Shown: positions 1,798 through 8,048 of the stretch, piece after piece | Layout of the letters: the number at the start of each line of letters is the position of its first letter | Numbering within the stretch: the stretch's first letter is position 1 | Virus record (IMG/VR): IMGVR_UViG_2681813273_000001 | Source of the DNA: a virus | Lineage: Duplodnaviria > Heunggongvirae > Uroviricota > Caudoviricetes | Length of the DNA: 8,048 nt | Direction: 5' to 3' (one strand) | The notes under the pieces: generated by a model | Databases searched by the model: none | Told to the model about the DNA's origin: nothing | The model's input: only the letters and a program-made list of their open reading frames with translations | Made by a program: the position numbers and the translations under genes

Positions 1798-2580
1798 TTA
1801 TGCTGCCCTTTTCATTGCGAATGGAACGCGAACAAACACGATCTCTTTATAGCAGCGGCAGTTTGGCAGCTCGCCCGCGTGGCCGGTCATGCCGTCCAAA
1901 GTTGGAGGTGAATCCCAGCGGACGAATTTACCTTTCATGTGATCGTGGGAATCTCGGACATCGCCATCATCGGCTGTACGCCAAATATAACCATCCGAGC
2001 CAATAGCTATCGCTCGGGCCATATCCAGCGCGCCCGTTGCTCTTCCCAGTTCCGTTCGGGCAATCAGATCGGCCCTAGACTTAGCAACATCGCCGGTAGA
2101 TGCAATCTCTTTAGCAAACTGCTCCGCCCGACCACCGGTGACAACAGCCTCTATCGCTTTGTTCTGGATGTCGTACACCCTGTCTGCGGCCTCGAGAGGC
2201 AGAGATTTGATGTACTTGACCTGTTCGGCGATGATGGATTGCATCACCTGGCCCACAGGAGCGCTTTCCACAAGATTGCGGAGCTCGCGACTGATGTTCT
2301 TGCTGTGTTGCCGCCAAACTTTCTCGTTCTGCCGGGTTAGGTCCGCAGTAAAGTTTTCCGCGACCTTTGTCGCCCAGGGGGTGATGATTTCACTGTAACG
2401 CTCCAGCGCCGCAATAATTTCCGTGATACTGTCATTTGAACCATCGTAGCGACCATTTACGATGTCTCCGACCGCCCTCGCTATCCTGCGTAGGCTGGTT
2501 CGATACCGGATTTCCGCCTGACGGCTCCTGCGGTTCGTCATCAGGTTCGCCGATGCCGGGCGGCGCTTCATCTTCGGCAT
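1798..2580 (-). CDS. Phage head morphogenesis protein, SPP1 gp7 / Mu F-like minor head protein (260 aa)
   Basis: Seen: ORF with ATG at 2580..2578 preceded by GAGGA about 8 nt upstream; TAA at 1800..1798. The motif region (ARTELGRA ... NCRC) and the position directly after the portal gene match the Mu F / SPP1 gp7 family (established family knowledge, recalled not searched). The start is uncertain: ATG also at 2571 and 2541, and no ATG/GTG/TTG exists in this frame between 2541 and 2435, so the gene overlaps the portal 3' end by at least 110 nt. Confidence 0.75.
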   Translation of the reverse strand: MPKMKRRPASANLMTNRRSRQAEIRYRTSLRRIARAVGDIVNGRYDGSNDSITEIIAALERYSEIITPWATKVAENFTADLTRQNEKVWRQHSKNISRELRNLVESAPVGQVMQSIIAEQVKYIKSLPLEAADRVYDIQNKAIEAVVTGGRAEQFAKEIASTGDVAKSRADLIARTELGRATGALDMARAIAIGSDGYIWRTADDGDVRDSHDHMKGKFVRWDSPPTLDGMTGHAGELPNCRCYKEIVFVRVPFAMKRAA

Positions 2581-3514
2581 TCTCGATGTCCTCGTCGGTA
2601 ATGGATGCCCCGATGCCGGTTACGTCAGAATTTTCTCGCAAATCAGTCATAGCGGCTTTCAGTGTCATCAGACCATCACCCAGCGCCGTACTGATTGCGT
2701 TGGTGGTGTTTAACGCCACCGTTGAGCGATCGACATCAGACATTTGCCAGAGCGGGTTAAACTCAAACGTGAAATCGTCCGGCAGCGGCTTGCCAAGTTC
2801 CGAACGATGCATGATGTCCAGTATCCGCCGCACCGGAAGACGTAAACGCCTCTCCTGCAACGAACTGATGCGATCGTAATAGTTGGCAAGGTCTGCATCA
2901 CCGGTAGAAAATCCTTTCGGGGACTGTCCGAACAACCGCACCAGTGGGATACCAACAGCGCCACTAATCTGTTCTACAAACTGCGAAAGGATGTCATCCA
3001 GACCACTGAAGCTGTACTGATGGGTTTCAAACTTATCCCGCGAGTCCATGAGCGTCATGCCTTCATTACTCTGGAACTGTCGAATCAGGTCGATATTCTT
3101 CAGCAACGCTTCATACGCAGGACCACCAAGTGCGATAAGCTCGCGTAGCTTCTCCACGCTGTAGGTACGCAAATGCGCCTTGTAGACCAGCTGCGCCGCG
3201 CCGACAGTAGCGCTGTCGAACGCGGTAAGACGATCCCAGATACGCTCTACAACCGACATTCCCCATTCGTTCTCGGTCATCTTCTGCTGAAATGGCAACG
3301 TGACGCCATCAAAGCGAATCAGGCGACTGTGATGAATGCGCCAGGCAGGAATTCCCGTTGCTGTGGTCACCACATCGTAAAACTCAGGTTTACCCAGGTC
3401 CGGCCCCATATCTTTAATGCGGCGGGTCAGTGCCGGGTCGACCATCCAGCGGTCGAGCGGGAGAATCCCCTTAAACTTGCCCTTACCGATGGTTTCGGGT
3501 CGCAGCGGGGTCAT
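2432..3514 (-). CDS. Phage portal protein (SPP1 gp6-like), longest uninterrupted segment of the portal reading frame (360 codons)
   Basis: Seen: ORF from ATG 3514..3512 to TGA 2434..2432, with an acidic C-terminal tail (DEDIENAEDEAPPGIGEPDDEPQEP...) typical of portal proteins. Position immediately downstream of the large terminase. The same frame continues upstream to an ATG at 3898 but crosses two TAG codons (see next feature). Confidence 0.75.
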   Translation of the reverse strand: MTPLRPETIGKGKFKGILPLDRWMVDPALTRRIKDMGPDLGKPEFYDVVTTATGIPAWRIHHSRLIRFDGVTLPFQQKMTENEWGMSVVERIWDRLTAFDSATVGAAQLVYKAHLRTYSVEKLRELIALGGPAYEALLKNIDLIRQFQSNEGMTLMDSRDKFETHQYSFSGLDDILSQFVEQISGAVGIPLVRLFGQSPKGFSTGDADLANYYDRISSLQERRLRLPVRRILDIMHRSELGKPLPDDFTFEFNPLWQMSDVDRSTVALNTTNAISTALGDGLMTLKAAMTDLRENSDVTGIGASITDEDIENAEDEAPPGIGEPDDEPQEPSGGNPVSNQPTQDSEGGRRHRKWSLRWFK

Positions 3515-3898
3515 TGGTGCCTACCCCTCAATCATGATGAAACCCACCGCGCCGCCGTAGAGGCGCGACCATTTCAGCACGTCATTCAGCGCATCCCAGA
3601 TTTGCAACTCATCCAGTTGTGATTCGAGAATGCCACGATCTTTTGCATCAATTTCCGAAGTGATGCGAATGCCTTTGCGGGTCATATCATCCGGGATAGC
3701 ATCGACTGCTTCGCCGATGATCTAGGATGAACGATAGGACCATTCCACCAGCATGCGGTTACGACTGGTGAAATTAGCCCGGTAGGTGGATGCTGAGTGC
3801 TGGTTAGGTGTCTGCATCCCTACGCGGGCAATAAAATTCTCATAACCATCAGCTGTGGCCTGCACAGTTCGCCGCAGGGCTTGTTTGTTTCGTGCCAT
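3515..3898 (-). pseudogene. N-terminal part of the portal reading frame, separated from the rest by two in-frame TAG (amber) codons at 3724..3722 and 3523..3521
   Basis: Seen by hand translation: ATG at 3898..3896 overlaps the large-terminase TGA (ATGA); frame reads MARNKQ...EWSYRSS-TAG-IIGEAVDAIPDDMTRKG...GFIMIEG-TAG-APMTPLRPE... and is the same frame as the 2432..3514 ORF, with no frameshift. Full frame 3898..2432 is 489 codons, which fits portal proteins of this type (~500 aa). Inference: either a genuinely disrupted portal gene, amber mutations, or base-call errors. Confidence 0.65.
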
Positions 3899-5307
3899 CA
3901 GGCCTGTCTCCCCAGCTGTTCCCAGATATCCAGCGATGTATCGATTGGCGCGAAGGCCATAATGAATGCATCAGCAACGTTTGGTGACGGTATCTCGCGT
4001 TTTGCGAGGTCTTTTTTACTTTCGACCATCACACGTCCGTTACGGTCGAAATCACGATGAGGTGTTGTCAGTTCCAGTTTCAGCTTTTCAAGCAACGGAC
4101 AACGAGAATCTATGCTGATCAGCTCATCCACAGGATACTGTTCTCCGTTGTTAATGGCGTTAAACGTATTTCTGAAACGGTCAGCCACCAGCCACCATGC
4201 CTGAGCCTTAAGATTTGCGAAAAAGTCTTTGTTGGGGATGCCGTTGTACTCGTCATCTGGCTCATGCACACCAGCACCGGCGTTAAACCTCTGGTAATTC
4301 ACACGTCGCGCGTATGCGTTCTCGCTCTTCNTCTTCCGGTCAGCGTTAATTTCAGAGAATTTAGCACCGGCAGACGCACCAACACCGATAGAGTCGTAAA
4401 CAATATCTGCTTCACGCTCCAGCGCCGCCTGATAAGTACGCTGGCAGCTCTTCAGTAATTCATCTTCTTTGGCCTTCCATTCGTCGGCCCAGAAAACAAC
4501 GGATCCGTGACGGTAAACGTTAGCGCACTTATCTGTACCACTGTCAGCCACGTCAAAGCCAATACGCTTTCTTCCACTGGGTTCGAAATTTAACGTTTTG
4601 TGCGCATCCACTGCGGCTTCTATCCAAGACAGTTTGATGATTGCCGCATCATCATCAGACTCCGGAACGCCCTCATACACATGTTTAAAACCATCCGGAT
4701 CACGGCGTCGCGCCGCGTCGATAACCTTAAGCATGGTGTCAGACAGAAACGGATTTTCGTCATAGTTAATTTTGCGGATGAGAGTGCCTTCGGGCGGATC
4801 AACAACGAAGTTGCGCCAGACGAAATCAGTAACAAGTCCGGGGTTGAATATGAACCAGCATTCCGAACCCTCTTTACGGATCGTTGGCTCCAGAATTTTC
4901 CACTGGTATTCCGTCAGTGCGTGGGCTTCTTCCAGCCACAACACATCGATCCCCTCCAGTGACTTAATTTCTTCGATGTTGCGCCATAATCCATAAAAAA
5001 CAAATTCCGAGCCAGTAACCCGGTTAATGATTTTGTTGTTCAGAATACGGAAACGGTGCCGCAGACCAAACCTGTCTATCTGAATTTTGAGCAGGGTATA
5101 CACCGACTCTTCGATTTTATTCTGGATCTGACGGGCACAACAAAAACGCAGGGTGTATTTATTCGACAGAAATATGGCAATGCCAGCGGCATCCCATGAT
5201 TTTGACGATGACCGACCACCATAAAGCACTTTGTTACGTGCCCGCATAGTCCAGAAACTACGTAAAGCCGGATTCAGCGTCGGTTTGGATGTCAGAGTAG
5301 AAGTCAT
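3898..5307 (-). CDS. Terminase large subunit (PBSX/SPP1-type, Terminase_3-like ATPase-nuclease)
   Basis: Seen: long ORF ending TGA 3900..3898. Walker-A-like VLYGGRSSSKSWD near the N-terminus, Walker-B-like IDVLWLEEAH, and a C-terminal acidic nuclease-like region (GFDVADSG, DAFIMAF). Start chosen at ATG 5307..5305 (MTSTLTSKP...) with GGAGAG about 10 nt upstream; alternative ATGs at 5334, 5331, 5325 and 5247 cannot be excluded. Contains an ambiguous base (n at 4321). Confidence 0.85.
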   Translation of the reverse strand: MTSTLTSKPTLNPALRSFWTMRARNKVLYGGRSSSKSWDAAGIAIFLSNKYTLRFCCARQIQNKIEESVYTLLKIQIDRFGLRHRFRILNNKIINRVTGSEFVFYGLWRNIEEIKSLEGIDVLWLEEAHALTEYQWKILEPTIRKEGSECWFIFNPGLVTDFVWRNFVVDPPEGTLIRKINYDENPFLSDTMLKVIDAARRRDPDGFKHVYEGVPESDDDAAIIKLSWIEAAVDAHKTLNFEPSGRKRIGFDVADSGTDKCANVYRHGSVVFWADEWKAKEDELLKSCQRTYQAALEREADIVYDSIGVGASAGAKFSEINADRKXKSENAYARRVNYQRFNAGAGVHEPDDEYNGIPNKDFFANLKAQAWWLVADRFRNTFNAINNGEQYPVDELISIDSRCPLLEKLKLELTTPHRDFDRNGRVMVESKKDLAKREIPSPNVADAFIMAFAPIDTSLDIWEQLGRQA

Positions 5308-6022
5308 TGAGGTCACGCTCTCCATTGCCATCATCAATACCTGCATCACGGCGAAGACGATCAGCCTCCAGAGACACCTTATCAGTGGCGGCCTTGCGGT
5401 AGGCTGTATCAGCAAATATTTTTCCTACCGTCGCAAGCGTGCCAACGATGGACTCAATACGAACTGTATTGCGCATCATTGCTTTCTCGGCGGCGCTGAT
5501 ATTTTCAATCAGCATCTTCCTTTCCTGGTCCCCATTAGCATCTTCCAGCGACACCAACCACCGACCAATATTCTCTGCAGCGACAAGGTTGTTAGCACGA
5601 AGGCGAAATAATTCGTCCTCGAGCGTCAACGCTTTAGCGTCCTCTATCACCTCATCTTTGAGCAGAAGGCGACGGGCATAACCACCGTGTTTTAATGCCT
5701 GCTGGTTACCGGGTTGGAATGGGTTAGTCGGGGGATCGGTACGCATTCCGCGTATCGGTTTCGTATCCGGTGTAGATTCTGTTTTTAGTTGCGTACTTTT
5801 TTGTGTAAGGCCAGTAATGGCAGGCTTTCTGCTGGTACGCACTTTCCTTTTTTGCGTACCATTTTTGCAAACCTGCGTACCGCCACTGCGTGCCCAACCA
5901 AGCTTTTTGGCCCTCTTCCTGATAGCCCCTTCTGTAACGCCGTATTTCTCGCCTATATCACGGAGGCTAAGGACTCCGGCCCGGTATGCCGATTCGATGG
6001 CCTCCCAGTCCGGTTTTGCCAT
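5258..6022 (-). CDS. Terminase small subunit with N-terminal helix-turn-helix (254 aa)
   Basis: Seen: ATG at 6022..6020 with AGGAAG 6-7 nt upstream; TAG at 5260..5258. N-terminus MAKPDWEAIESAYRAGVLSLRDIGEKYGVTEGAIRKRAKKLGW matches the HTH-type N-terminal pattern common to small terminase subunits (recalled). Located immediately upstream of, and overlapping, the large terminase gene. Confidence 0.75.
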   Translation of the reverse strand: MAKPDWEAIESAYRAGVLSLRDIGEKYGVTEGAIRKRAKKLGWARSGGTQVCKNGTQKRKVRTSRKPAITGLTQKSTQLKTESTPDTKPIRGMRTDPPTNPFQPGNQQALKHGGYARRLLLKDEVIEDAKALTLEDELFRLRANNLVAAENIGRWLVSLEDANGDQERKMLIENISAAEKAMMRNTVRIESIVGTLATVGKIFADTAYRKAATDKVSLEADRLRRDAGIDDGNGERDLNDFYSDIQTDAESGFT

Positions 6023-6219
6023 GATTATGCTTCCTGTGATTTACTGTTATCGCTGCCTGTCACAATAGGTTGCTTTAATTCTTCCTCATCACTCACTCCT
6101 GCGACGCTCCGTGGCAGGGCCCCCCACAGGAGTACCTTGTAAATGTAAGGTGTTTAAGCCTAAATTAAGTCGTATCACGGTTAAATAGCAAAGAAAAATT
6201 CACAGAAGGAAAGACATTG

Positions 6220-6729
6220 ATGGAGTGGATAAATGCTTTGATGAACTATTTTGTACTTCATCCATATCGCCTATGGGGGCTTCTTTTTATAATAGCGTTC
6301 ACAAAATCCACTTTACTCATTTCGGCGATATTGCCACCAGCATCAATTATGATGGCCACTGTAATTACAGTCAGCAAGACGACTCTTTCACCATGGGAAG
6401 CTGGAATCACGGTCATGAGTGGCGCATGGTGCGGTACTATCGTTAATTACCATCTTGGTATAATAATTGGGCATATCCCTCAACTTGCATGTATAATATC
6501 AAGCCGTTCCAATACAATAGAACGGGTTCGCCTTCAGTTGCAAAATAACTCTGTGTCAATACTTTTCACTTCGCGCTTTATCGCCGTGCTGCGTTATATT
6601 GCTCCTTTGGTGGCAGGAATGTTGCAACTTCATCCAGTGAAAGTGTATACAGTGAGTCTGATTTCAGCTGCTAGCTGGTCAGCACTTTATGTTGGTAGTT
6701 TTAGCTTCGTGTTGCCTTTTTTTAGCTAA
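6220..6729 (+). CDS. DedA-family (SNARE-associated/TVP38-like) small inner-membrane protein; prophage moron (169 aa from ATG 6220)
   Basis: Seen: ATG at 6220 (the ORF track starts at an in-frame TTG at 6217), GAAGGA RBS about 10 nt upstream, TAA at 6727..6729. About four hydrophobic segments. Motifs GTIVNYHLGIIIG and SRFIAVLRYIAPLVAGM closely resemble the E. coli DedA signature motifs (G.AVNY..GR and RF.P..R...P.VAGM), recalled from memory. Visibly AT-richer than flanking phage genes and on the opposite strand to the late operon. Confidence 0.6.
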   Translation: MEWINALMNYFVLHPYRLWGLLFIIAFTKSTLLISAILPPASIMMATVITVSKTTLSPWEAGITVMSGAWCGTIVNYHLGIIIGHIPQLACIISSRSNTIERVRLQLQNNSVSILFTSRFIAVLRYIAPLVAGMLQLHPVKVYTVSLISAASWSALYVGSFSFVLPFFS

Positions 6730-6817
6730 ACTGCCCATAAAAAGCTCTTGCGAATCCAGCTTCCCCCATTCCTCTGACAACAGAATCTGATTTGAAGGAT
6801 AATGAGTAAAATTACCG

Positions 6818-7288
6818 CTACCCCCCAAGGCATTGGATCCTGATGTACTCCTGAAGCATTCTCAATGCTGTCTGGTCGCTGATGATTCCGTCCCGGATAC
6901 CGAGAACGTTTCGTCCAGCAACTGGAGAGAGTTCGACGGTGGCATCATTGCCCATGCCGGAGGCGCTGGAGGTTTCGGCTGAGGATGGCACAGGGCATTT
7001 TCCTTTGACGAGCACCCGACCACCATTATCAAGCTTGCGCCGAAGAGCATCATTTTCAGCTTTCGCATCAGCTAACTCCTTCGTGTATTTAGCATCGAGT
7101 GCATCAGCATCACGCTGGCGCTGCTGCATGTCAGTAATGGTTGCGTTCGCCAGCTTCAGTTCTCTTGCGTTTTTGTCGCGCTGCTCTTTGTAGGTAATGG
7201 CGTTATCACGGTAATGATTAACAGCCCATGACAGGCGGACGATGATGCAGATAACCAGAGCGGAGATAATCGCGGTGACTCTGCTCAT
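6818..7288 (-). CDS. Rz: Rz-type i-spanin (inner-membrane spanin subunit)
   Basis: Seen: ATG at 7288..7286 overlaps the endolysin TGA (ATGA); the ORF track starts at an in-frame GTG at 7300. N-terminal TM segment ([20 protein letters not shown]) followed by a charged, coiled-coil-like periplasmic domain; TAG at 6820..6818. Position and architecture match lambdoid Rz. Confidence 0.85.
6862..7068 (-). CDS. Rz1: Rz1-type o-spanin (outer-membrane lipoprotein), embedded in the +1 frame of Rz
   Basis: Seen: ATG at 7068..7066, TGA at 6864..6862, lying entirely inside Rz in another frame. Product [19 protein letters not shown]|SS... has a lipoprotein signal peptide with lipobox VVGC, followed by a Pro-rich mature region ([11 protein letters not shown]), the hallmark of Rz1. 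Confidence 0.8.
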
Positions 7289-7782
7289 TGCTGCCCCCAC
7301 AAACAGACTTCACGCTCAATCTCACGACGGGTCATCAGCCCTTTCCATTGCTTACCGCCAGCATATGTCCAGCGACGTAGCTGGTCACATGCGCCTTTGA
7401 TATCGCCCTGGTTTATTTTGCGAAGAAGCGTCGATGTTCTGAAATTGCCAGCGCCCACGTTGTAAACGAACGAGTAAAGAGCGCCGCGCGTTGTTTCCGG
7501 TATATCGACTTTGATGTACGGGTTAATTTGTCTGGCGACAGTGGCAAGGTCTTTATTCAGGAGGGCTTTGCATTCTGCTTCGGTATACGTTTTACCGAGC
7601 ATGATGTCTTTTCCGGTGTGTCCGTGACATACAGTCCATACACCAATGATATCTTTGTATGGTATGTAGCTGACACCTTCCAGACCATCGTTACCACCTG
7701 GGCCAGTGATTAACACAGATGCTATAGCAACAGCCCCGCCACCAATAGCAACTGCAACAGCCTTGCGTAATGATGGCGACAT
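7285..7782 (-). CDS. R: SAR endolysin (T4-lysozyme-type muramidase with signal-anchor-release N-terminus), phage 21 R-like
   Basis: Seen: ATG at 7782..7780 overlaps the holin TAA by one base (TAATG); TGA at 7287..7285. N-terminal Gly/Ala-rich weakly hydrophobic segment ([20 protein letters not shown]) typical of SAR domains; catalytic triad spacing E-x8-D-x5-T present ([17 protein letters not shown]). Near-identical by recollection to the phage 21 R endolysin / DLP12 rrrD family. Confidence 0.9.
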
Positions 7783-8048
7783 TATTCACCTCTCGCAGCC
7801 TTACGCTTGTCTTCTCTTATTTTGAAATACAGATTNNNNNNNNNNNNNNNNNNNNNNNNNNNNNNNNNNNNNNNNNNNNNNNNNNNNNNNNNNNNNGTCA
7901 GATAAGTCAGAAGCCCCAGAAGCAGACTTCCCAGCACACCAATCGCAGCCCACTGTGATGGACTGACCTGATCCAACCACTGCAAAAACCAGTAGCCGGC
8001 ACTGCCGGCGGAGGTGCCGTAGGCAATGCCTGTTGATATTTTTTCCAT
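7782..8048 (-). CDS. S: Class II holin (pinholin), phage 21 S-like; reading frame spans a 61-nt N-run; a possible upstream alternative start would lie beyond the window edge
   Basis: Seen: ATG at 8048..8046 (last bases of the window), TAA at 7784..7782. Translation [50 protein letters not shown]-(N-run)[17 protein letters not shown] matches the S21 pinholin as I recall it ([68 protein letters not shown]). S21 is known to have dual translational starts a few codons apart, so the longer form may start off-window. Confidence 0.85.
7836..7896. other. Run of 61 ambiguous bases (assembly gap or masked segment) inside the holin gene
   Basis: Seen directly: n at every position 7836..7896. The flanks are in frame with each other across the run (2 + 61 = 63 nt = 21 codons). 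Confidence 0.95.

Follow-up and report, generated by a model that had tools for sequence, protein, structure and literature searches.

The DedA proteins have recently been recognised as the long-sought flippases of undecaprenyl phosphate (Und-P) and phospholipids and as polymyxin-resistance determinants, and their mechanism has been argued mainly from four charged residues. Two members of the superfamily, DbcA and DkcA, are canonical Glu-bearing proteins of approximately 220 amino acids. In phage lambda, bor is the gene that immediately follows Rz, and its transcription runs counter to that of the late operon; the horizontally acquired envelope genes that are regulated by PhoP include Salmonella pagC, pagK, ugtL, virK and the phage-borne sodCI. 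Here we describe a DedA-like gene at positions 6220-6729 of an 8,048-nucleotide stretch of DNA from a virus of the class Caudoviricetes (IMG/VR record IMGVR_UViG_2681813273_000001), the whole of which we refer to as the window.

The residues against which the product of this gene must be judged are known from two proteins. The function of Escherichia coli YqjA requires E39, D51, R130, R136 and S52 (bioRxiv 10.64898/2026.09.20.752871; PMC7818093), and the protein forms a dimer whose centre contains E39/D51 and R130/R136 (bioRxiv 10.64898/2026.09.20.752871). In Bacillus subtilis UptA, R112, R118, E32 and W146 contribute to the binding of C55-P (PMC11474028).

We conclude with high confidence that the gene is cargo of host origin, a moron, occupying the slot between Rz and the terminase genes of a defective prophage and that its product is an atypical DedA protein. 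The host of the cassette is a SEN34-like/lambdoid prophage, and this defective prophage with its cargo gene is widespread in Shigella flexneri. Sequence comparison firmly supports the assignment of the protein to a separate, Enterobacterales-only subfamily of minimal-core DedA/VTT proteins with Lys in place of Glu, which we call K-type. As to its role, we lean towards a K-type cargo gene that supports PhoPQ-type envelope remodelling in the lysogen, PhoPQ being the system that responds to the stress of low Mg2+ and antimicrobial peptides. The features on which the argument turns are the following.

6220-6729, plus strand: DedA/VTT gene for a short K-type inner-membrane protein (PF09335, hhalign, dN/dS)
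6206-6210, plus strand: ribosome-binding site AAGGA, 9 nt before the ATG at 6220 (direct sequence reading)
~6147-6740, plus strand: mobile cassette comprising the promoter block, the open reading frame (ORF) and ~10 nt after its stop (alignments with homologues elsewhere)
6151-6168, plus strand: degenerate PhoP-box-like direct repeat TGTTTA/AGCCTA/AATTAA, 9/12, with a 6-nt rather than a 5-nt spacer
6181-6186, plus strand: -10-like hexamer TTAAAT, 12 nt 3' of the repeat and present in 12 of 12 aligned sequences
6137-6166, plus strand: earlier promoter candidate, TTGTAA, an 18-nt spacer and TAAATT (8/12 matches to consensus, below the scan threshold)
6818-7300, minus strand: Rz i-spanin, the final lysis-cassette gene and right flank of the slot (PF03245, E = 1e-29; phrog_13)
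5258-6022, minus strand: small terminase (terS), left flank of the slot (phrog_370, E = 7.5e-95)

The protein and its subfamily

The ORF runs from the ATG at 6220 to the TAA at 6727-6729 and encodes a protein of 169 amino acids. RefSeq starts the gene at the TTG at 6217; the ATG at 6220 is the start common to all homologues, and the TTG is absent from two Kosakonia-type copies (Kosakonia oryziphila and a soil metagenome-assembled genome). A preliminary description, made by a model from the sequence alone, had taken the ORF for the only plus-strand gene in the window, and our ORF survey bears this out: every other long ORF on the plus strand lies antisense to a phage gene of the minus strand. 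That description had also judged the ORF to be richer in AT than its neighbours, and the G+C fraction is indeed 0.418 (0.382 at third codon positions) compared with 0.520 for the remaining window, with values of 0.53 for Rz, 0.51 for terS and 0.49 for the large terminase gene (terL). The upstream part of the cassette, 6147-6219, has a G+C fraction of 0.33. The ribosome-binding site that the ORF had been credited with is the AAGGA listed above, and the divergent intergenic stretch shared with terS, previously put at about 200 nt, measures 197 nt from the ATG to the terS start at 6022.

The protein matches the Pfam profile PF09335 (VTT_dom) with E = 9e-14; the score of 52.4 bits exceeds the cut-off of 33.9, and the match takes in 119 of the 123 profile positions (3-121). 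Likewise, hhalign aligns it to canonical DedA proteins with 99.3% probability over 164 columns. The DedA assignment made in the preliminary description, for which a Pfam check had been proposed, is thus upheld. VTT_dom is the sole Pfam match, with no homology to the Bor lipoprotein, and a sequence search of the PDB found no relative of solved structure. Scores against the NCBIfam equivalogs fall far short: 31 bits against a cut-off of 236 for E. coli DedA (NF008102), and 19.9 against 250 and 16.3 against 300 for the two UptA equivalogs (NF052604 and NF052605). The earlier idea of an ordinary DedA paralogue therefore named the family correctly and failed in its detail, in that the protein is short, carries Lys for Glu and lies below the equivalog cut-offs. 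When 1.84 billion representative proteins were searched with phmmer, 583 matched at E < 1e-3 and 15 at E < 1e-10, and matches so few place the protein far from the bulk of the large DedA superfamily, in a sharply delimited family. Its nearest relatives outside the subfamily are DedA-PAP2-LssY_C fusions of 650-690 amino acids with an N-terminal VTT domain (e.g. P0035, P0038 and P0040).

We mapped the functional residues in three ways: by a multiple alignment with E. coli YqjA, YghB, DedA, YohD and YabI, by aligning 170 matches on the query hidden Markov model, and by profile-profile comparison. All three were concordant. The YqjA segment FLENG corresponds to FTKST, which puts K29 at the position of E39; LPGDS corresponds to LPPAS, with A41 at D51 and S42 at S52; and in loop 2 GRFIAFVRT corresponds to SRFIAVLRY, with R119 and R125 at R130 and R136. 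The conserved Trp is W153. The protein thus has the loop-2 arginine pair and lacks the loop-1 acidic residue (YqjA E39, UptA E32). Read directly, its sequence is free of Asp throughout and free of Glu between residues 3 and 59, and the C-terminal ~45 residues of canonical DedA proteins, which form a transmembrane helix, are missing.

These peculiarities belong to the subfamily. Lys occupies the loop-1 position in all of its ~30 members, compared with Glu or, occasionally, Asp in nearly all of the ~130 other DedA matches. The members, of 167-180 amino acids, have in common the motifs x-K-S-T, LPPAS and SRF(I/L)A(V/I)LRY; no acidic residue is conserved across them, and the loop-2 arginines and the tryptophan are kept. 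A low-confidence AlphaFold2 model places helices at residues 2-12, 15-29, 40-53, 58-84, 87-109, 120-134 and 139-168, a pattern consistent with two repeats of amphipathic helix, re-entrant loop and transmembrane helix and with the absence of the C-terminal helix.

The ratio of nonsynonymous to synonymous substitution rates (dN/dS) is 0.15-0.24 in comparisons with relatives, the value of 0.24 being that obtained with the copy in a Citrobacter youngae prophage. At the level of sequence, the intact membrane-protein gene is shown to have been under purifying selection. Among sister loci the ORF differs by 1-2 nt, and it is intact in 18 of them despite varied lesions nearby. We considered this survival amid at least nine different breakpoints as proof of selection and rejected it, since approximately 0.6 disruptions would be expected by chance; survival is statistically uninformative because the ORF is small and was itself the query by which the loci were found.

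The cassette and its prophage

The limits of the cassette were set by alignment with the C. youngae prophage copy and with the chromosomal copies of C. meridianamericanus and C. amalonaticus. The part common to homologues in other contexts is ~590 bp and consists of ~70 nt upstream of the ORF, the ORF itself and ~10 nt downstream. On the left, the window ceases to resemble other phages and prophages at ~6029-6110, and on the right the homology resumes at ~6771-6789; on the terS side, homology to Klebsiella and Salmonella phages ends at ~6022-6029. In Klebsiella phage ST16-OXA48phi5.2, which has homologous lysis and terminase genes, the gap between Rz and terS is 208 nt and holds a 45-codon ORF and no DedA gene. 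As is characteristic of a moron, therefore, the gene stands between two genes that are adjacent in a related phage, and its composition differs from that of the phage (G+C 0.418 versus 0.520). A terminator of its own, which a moron should also have, is missing, and the 5' block is conserved and includes the -10-like TTAAAT, yet the promoter scan returned no consensus sigma-70 site.

An unrelated lambda-like prophage of C. youngae, whose genes include those for a GpA terminase, a GH19 endolysin and different holins, has a 78%-identical copy. The copy is carried on the opposite strand, upstream of the terminase genes, and lies within the lysis cassette or immediately behind it. The same slot is thus empty in a related Klebsiella phage and filled by a homologue in an unrelated prophage, in agreement with the bor-like slot proposed in the preliminary description. 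The best matches to the cassette are Citrobacter and Kosakonia copies (57-78% protein identity). Within this mobile clade the G+C of the gene is clearly below that of its flanks in the Shigella/E. coli prophage and in Kosakonia, marginally so in the C. youngae prophage, and not below in C. amalonaticus; in Enterobacter, Morganella and Arsenophonus it is close to that of the flanks. The chromosomal copies adjoin dinI in C. meridianamericanus, lie between chemoreceptor and porin genes in C. amalonaticus, and lie between genes for an EF-G paralogue and an L,D-transpeptidase in Kosakonia.

A DNA search of 50,697 phage records found no match to the gene, and tblastn of phage records gave nothing above 30% identity. 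Several of the tblastn matches are short unannotated records or large bacterial-named contigs that resemble host DNA. An IMG/VR contig (L099) was considered as a third phage context and rejected. It carries a 73%-identical copy near a MuA transposase and a Mu c-like repressor (2179-5101), and the gene lies ~900 nt outside the repressor end of the Mu-like prophage; this copy is probably, to judge from its position, host flank in a viral contig rather than phage cargo.

Of 5,426 complete E. coli genomes, 6 contain prophages that share 99.4-99.9% identity with the window region, and in all six RefSeq labels the gene 'DedA family protein'. An identical protein is found on at least 1000 contigs, mostly of S. 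flexneri, and IMG/VR holds 14 copies of the gene. The structural module is 94.5% identical to that of vB_EcoM-689R2-type Escherichia phages and is related to that of Salmonella phage SEN34. Beyond terS, the minus-strand late region continues with the large terminase, the portal, a head-morphogenesis protein and two more head proteins. The remaining annotated features of the window are these.

7782-8048, minus strand: holin gene, broken by a run of N
7285-7782, minus strand: lysozyme gene of the late region
6862-7068, minus strand: Rz1, embedded in Rz (PF06085)
2432-3898, minus strand: portal (DUF1073) pseudogene, with two in-frame TAG codons, 3722-3724 and 3521-3523, seen in translation

The prophage is judged defective because its portal gene has two nonsense codons and sister copies carry varied insertion sequence (IS) insertions and breakpoints. 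RefSeq annotates the same portal gene as intact in FDAARGOS_943, where the prophage adjoins ybhA/modC and many copies of IS1, IS2 and IS600 are present. Among sister copies (L001, L002, L015, L016 and L084-L097), the lesions around the cassette differ by strain and include, in window positions, IS2 in terL at ~4854, a 1.3-kb insertion at ~4640, and breakpoints at 5983, 6011, 6030, 6818-6822, 6880 and 7063. Where IS911 stands at 6170, it replaces everything to the left, including the PhoP-like repeat; the -10 hexamer and the ORF are kept. The preliminary description had argued that readthrough of the late operon from Rz towards the terminase genes would be antisense to the gene and would restrict its expression to the lysogen. 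The geometry is correct, and the argument is largely moot in a defective prophage. Sense transcription past the DedA-like ORF would run antisense into Rz.

Some further observations concern the prophage at large. The window contains a single N at 4331, in the large terminase gene, and a run of 61 N at 7836-7896, in the holin gene; as assembly gaps, these suggest a draft assembly as its source. For the large terminase, the longest ORF begins with a TTG at 5415 and would overlap terS by 158 nt (5258-5415), and the RefSeq start in a sister copy corresponds to approximately window position 5307; the mechanically assigned start is probably placed too far upstream. Just 5' of the lysis cassette, sister prophages have four tRNA genes (Ile, Arg, Thr, and Gly or Val), at 22655-22965 in L001 and 10118-10424 in L002, and the early-right region of L001 also has hokD and a queH gene.

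Chromosomal orthologues, PhoP boxes and the promoter region

We searched for K-type relatives by a genome scan with a 9-sequence alignment and compared neighbourhoods at 66 loci, those of Serratia and Proteus being read from cluster representatives. Members are found in Serratia, Hafnia/Obesumbacterium, Proteus hauseri, Morganella, Lelliottia, Kosakonia, Citrobacter and Entomohabitans, in ~30 species-representative genomes of Enterobacter, and also in Arsenophonus and the louse endosymbiont Candidatus Riesia, whose genome is 575 kb. In Candidatus Riesia pediculicola (L081/L082) the gene (6001-6516) lies right behind rpsU-dnaG-rpoD, and reduced Arsenophonus genomes keep it near rpoD. That the Riesia genome and reduced Arsenophonus genomes have kept the family speaks for an important function, exercised autonomously by the protein.

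In ~27 Enterobacter and Lelliottia loci the immediate divergent neighbour encodes an MgtE-family transporter (MgtE and CBS domains). MgtE is the downstream neighbour in five Arsenophonus loci, and in Hafnia it is two genes away, with TetR and major facilitator superfamily (MFS) genes between; in eight Morganella loci the K-type gene lies between rarD and corA. Hafnia paralvei (L052) has two convergent K-type paralogues, 8001-8519 on the plus strand and 8979-9554 on the minus strand, ~460 nt apart. In Hafnia alvei and Serratia the K-type gene is directly 3' of an MFS transporter gene, with gaps of 23 nt and 75 nt, respectively, and such short gaps suggest an operon.

Upstream of the Enterobacter genes we found a perfect PhoP box, TGTTTA-N5-GGTTTA, on the strand of the gene at approximately -104 from the ATG in 22 loci, and an 11/12 match in 5 further loci (Enterobacter, Lelliottia and an unclassified Enterobacteriaceae isolate). 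Scores as high as those of these boxes occur in only 4 of 1320 random 250-nt windows of the same loci. The distal perfect box, TGTTTAAGAACGGTTTA, lies in the divergent intergenic region between mgtE and the DedA-like gene (L023-L053, ~27 species), and it probably also serves mgtE. Closer to the gene, a proximal element, TGTTGA-N5-TATTTA followed after 12 nt by TTAAAT, is conserved from Enterobacter through Citrobacter to the window in a 12-sequence alignment, whose invariant columns lie mostly in the half-site cores and the TTAAAT hexamer. Two of the six hexamer columns are invariant and the other four are at least 90% conserved. Enterobacter has a proximal box of 10/12 in addition to the perfect distal box. 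In architecture I PhoP promoters (mgtA, phoP and slyB), a direct box lies ~12 nt upstream of the -10 (PMC3335776).

Published RNA-seq of colistin-selected, mgrB-deleted E. hormaechei lends independent support to control of the Enterobacter orthologue by PhoP. In that strain, in which PhoPQ is derepressed, N5F16_08425 (MgtE) is up 19.6-fold, N5F16_08430 (DedA family) 23.1-fold and N5F16_08435 (short-chain dehydrogenase/reductase, SDR) 3.1-fold, and arnBCADT (35-56-fold), pagP, virK/ybjX, yfaZ, slyB and mgtA are co-induced (PMC10434160). By gene order, N5F16_08430 is identified as the K-type orthologue, because the order MgtE-DedA-SDR is the same as in the E. hormaechei loci that we compared. 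Taking the sequence and these RNA-seq data together, we regard control of the Enterobacter orthologue by PhoPQ as probable.

In the window, the proximal element marks the start of the cassette, which lacks the distal perfect box. Its repeat consists of TGTTTA (6151-6156), AGCCTA (6157-6162) and AATTAA (6163-6168), followed by 12 nt (6169-6180) and the TTAAAT hexamer, and it corresponds by position to TGTTGA-N5-TATTTA of Enterobacter and to TGTTTA-GGCTC-GATTGA of the C. youngae prophage, where the box scores 10/12 with correct spacing. We took as architecture I a direct (T/G)GTTTA-N5-(T/G)GTTTA with at most two mismatches ~12 nt upstream of the -10; the window copy departs from this pattern, though the 12-nt distance to TTAAAT is kept. 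From the hexamer, transcription is predicted to start near 6193. No Rfam family matched around the gene, so that no known riboswitch or leader accounts for the conserved 5' block. Predicted folding of the 5' untranslated region and of the 3' flank was the same as that of shuffled sequence. A minus-strand hairpin at 6525-6504 was considered as a terminator and rejected, being at chance level and specific to this window.

For the same region the preliminary description had proposed a weak sigma-70 promoter, TTGTAA and TAAATT. The two hexamers and their 18-nt spacer are in place; the match is 8/12 and unconserved, and it is a different block, 6151-6186, that is conserved. TTGTAA, the -35, lies outside the conserved cassette, and TAAATT, the -10, aligns to GATTGA in homologues, having been created by the same substitutions that degrade the second PhoP half-site. 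The pair could still be a junction promoter specific to the Shigella copy.

Function, alternatives and comparison with known systems

In the mechanism that we envisage, the gene would have been captured from a Citrobacter- or Kosakonia-like chromosome, and in the lysogen the remnant of its own promoter would drive its transcription, which would be independent of the late operon and run against it. The protein would insert into the inner membrane, where its all-cationic K29/R119/R125 site would handle an anionic lipid head group, most likely that of Und-P or a phospholipid, without the usual acid-based proton coupling. The outcome would be an aid to the envelope remodelling commanded by PhoPQ and to low-Mg2+ adaptation, so that the host would gain in fitness. 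The specific proposition that anionic lipid (Und-P or phospholipid) is handled by the all-cationic site without proton coupling, in support of PhoPQ remodelling, is tentative. Bolder, and improbable in its full extent, is the view that K-type DedA proteins are a mechanistically distinct class of lipid-phosphate handlers that would flip or hold Und-P, an Und-P-linked sugar or a phospholipid, working without acid-based proton coupling and deployed by PhoPQ together with arn; they would bear on 4-amino-4-deoxy-L-arabinose (Ara4N) modification of lipid A, polymyxin (hetero)resistance and low-Mg2+ survival, and would include a prophage-spread virulence or fitness factor of Shigella.

Several results weigh against a role in PhoPQ-type remodelling. 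The PhoP-like box of the window, at 9/12, is at background level when taken alone, and a 1-nt insertion breaks its 5-nt spacing. A microarray of the delta-phoPQ mutant of S. flexneri 301 lists 117 regulated genes (PMC5775216), none with a tag in the expected range, SF06xx-SF08xx, the exact tag of the gene being unmapped, and the 38 predicted PhoP boxes of the same study apparently do not include the DedA-like gene (PMC5775216). A terminator scan 3' of the ORF found none, and folding of 6715-6835 is close to that of shuffled sequence (z = 0.79). An mgtE or corA neighbour is absent from the Serratia, P. hauseri, Kosakonia and Citrobacter loci, and where mgtE does adjoin the gene this may reflect shared PhoP control or inherited synteny, not joint function. 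The AlphaFold2 model, built from a 19-sequence alignment, has a mean pLDDT confidence score of 58, with loops below 50. Finally, because the Glu-to-Lys change affects a residue whose loss inactivates YqjA, one may not take for granted that the protein acts as a transporter in the way of YqjA or UptA.

The alternative that survives best, although we hold it unlikely, was put forward in essence by the preliminary description: the protein would be a canonical DedA/UptA-like Und-P recycler, expressed in the lysogen from TTGTAA/TAAATT and altering lipid-carrier flux and surface polysaccharide, with effects in turn on the presentation of phage receptors or on superinfection resistance. It draws support from the VTT domain, from the retention of the UptA C55-P residues R112, R118 and W146 as R119, R125 and W153, from the DedA-PAP2 fusions that are the nearest relatives outside the subfamily, and from the bor slot. 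A score of 19.9 bits against a 250-bit UptA equivalog cut-off speaks against it, as do the Lys at the equivalent of E32/E39, the absent C-terminal helix and the unconserved 8/12 promoter. PADLOC found no defence-system match, and we found no sign of an effect on receptors; the nearest experimental context that we found is the place of the orthologue in the Enterobacter PhoPQ regulon.

Given that the gene adjoins two non-homologous families of Mg2+ transporter in different lineages and that its Enterobacter orthologue is co-induced with mgtE and mgtA, we also considered a factor in Mg2+ homeostasis that would act with, or replace, MgtE/CorA-type channels, through the membrane potential or by moving Mg2+ directly. 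DedA proteins of Klebsiella and Xanthomonas have been linked to Mg2+/Ca2+ homeostasis (PMC10846249; PMC10470534), and under this alternative the phage would spread a low-Mg2+ survival gene suited to intracellular Shigella. However, three cationic residues without a conserved acid make an improbable cation pathway, the mobile clade travels without mgtE, and much of the adjacency comes from a shared PhoP-controlled intergenic region and inherited synteny; in Hafnia, TetR and MFS genes are inserted between the two. We judge this explanation doubtful.

Similarly low is the likelihood that we assign to a silent passenger, that is, a gene in a decaying prophage that has merely not yet been mutated and is silenced by H-NS and a broken promoter. 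The defective prophage, the degenerate promoter box, the AT-rich cassette without a terminator and the gene's absence from the S. flexneri PhoP-regulated list all fit such a gene, and survival of the ORF among the lesions of sister copies is statistically non-significant. Against this stand a dN/dS of 0.24 even when the comparison is with the C. youngae prophage copy, an identical protein on at least 1000 contigs, and a family that is clearly functional elsewhere, given its 23-fold induction in Enterobacter and its retention by Riesia. Were the Shigella copy silent, the finding would reduce to an annotated cargo gene in a dead prophage. Least likely is a modulatory subunit, in which the short Lys-bearing protein would pair with host YqjA, YghB or DedA through the re-entrant hairpins by which DedA proteins dimerise, and would alter or inhibit the activity of its partner: E39/D51 and R130/R136 lie at the centre of the YqjA dimer and a charge reversal would complement the host subunit, but the idea is purely inferential, and retention of the family in endosymbionts with tiny genomes argues for autonomous function.

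If the reading in which the gene supports PhoPQ-type remodelling is right, carriage by a prophage into Shigella would add an inner-membrane lipid-handling protein to the few known functions of lysogenic conversion. The subfamily also offers a ready way to decide between a requirement for the acidic residue in transport and one in coupling alone, in that it is a natural variant in which Lys always replaces an essential Glu, yet it is conserved, strongly induced by PhoPQ and kept in a 575-kb genome. Genes of the N5F16_08430 type are flagged here as overlooked members of the colistin-response regulon in Enterobacter. The bare gene is already known, as a DedA family annotation in RefSeq. Our search of the literature for phage-borne DedA genes and for the RefSeq accession returned no relevant report, and this, together with the lack of a DNA match among phage records, accords with the earlier remark that no characterised phage-borne DedA paralogue is known in this position. 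In the literature searched we found no account of the Lys-type subfamily, of its PhoP box or its synteny with mgtE/corA, of its having been captured by two unrelated prophages, or of the identity of the induced 'DedA' gene of colistin-resistant E. hormaechei as a member of the Lys-type subfamily.

When set beside E. coli YqjA, YghB and DedA and B. subtilis UptA, the protein shares the PF09335 domain, the loop-2 motif R-F-x4-R-x3-P-x2-A-G and the conserved Trp, and the helix pattern predicted by the low-confidence model is consistent with theirs. It differs from them in being ~50 residues shorter, without the C-terminal transmembrane helix, and from YqjA and UptA in having Lys for E39/E32, Ala for D51 and no conserved acid. 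Canonical DedA proteins are set apart further by the confinement of the K-type subfamily to Enterobacterales and by its scores far below the NCBIfam equivalog cut-offs.

With lambda bor (and lom) the gene has in common its position after Rz and before the packaging end, its orientation opposite to the late operon and its foreign composition, and presumably, with bor, expression from the prophage. The two genes are unrelated in sequence, Bor being an outer-membrane lipoprotein and the K-type product a polytopic inner-membrane protein, and no terminator was found for the K-type gene. Compared with the PhoP-regulated acquired envelope genes of Salmonella, it is likewise an AT-rich, acquired membrane gene with a PhoP-box promoter, and its Enterobacter orthologue is co-induced with arn, pagP and virK/ybjX; the box of the window copy, unlike theirs, is degenerate, and its dependence on PhoP is putative. 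With Burkholderia DbcA, Klebsiella DkcA and Enterobacter DedA(Ecl), which are needed for polymyxin resistance, the K-type protein shares both the superfamily and the setting of PhoPQ, Ara4N-modified lipid A and colistin.

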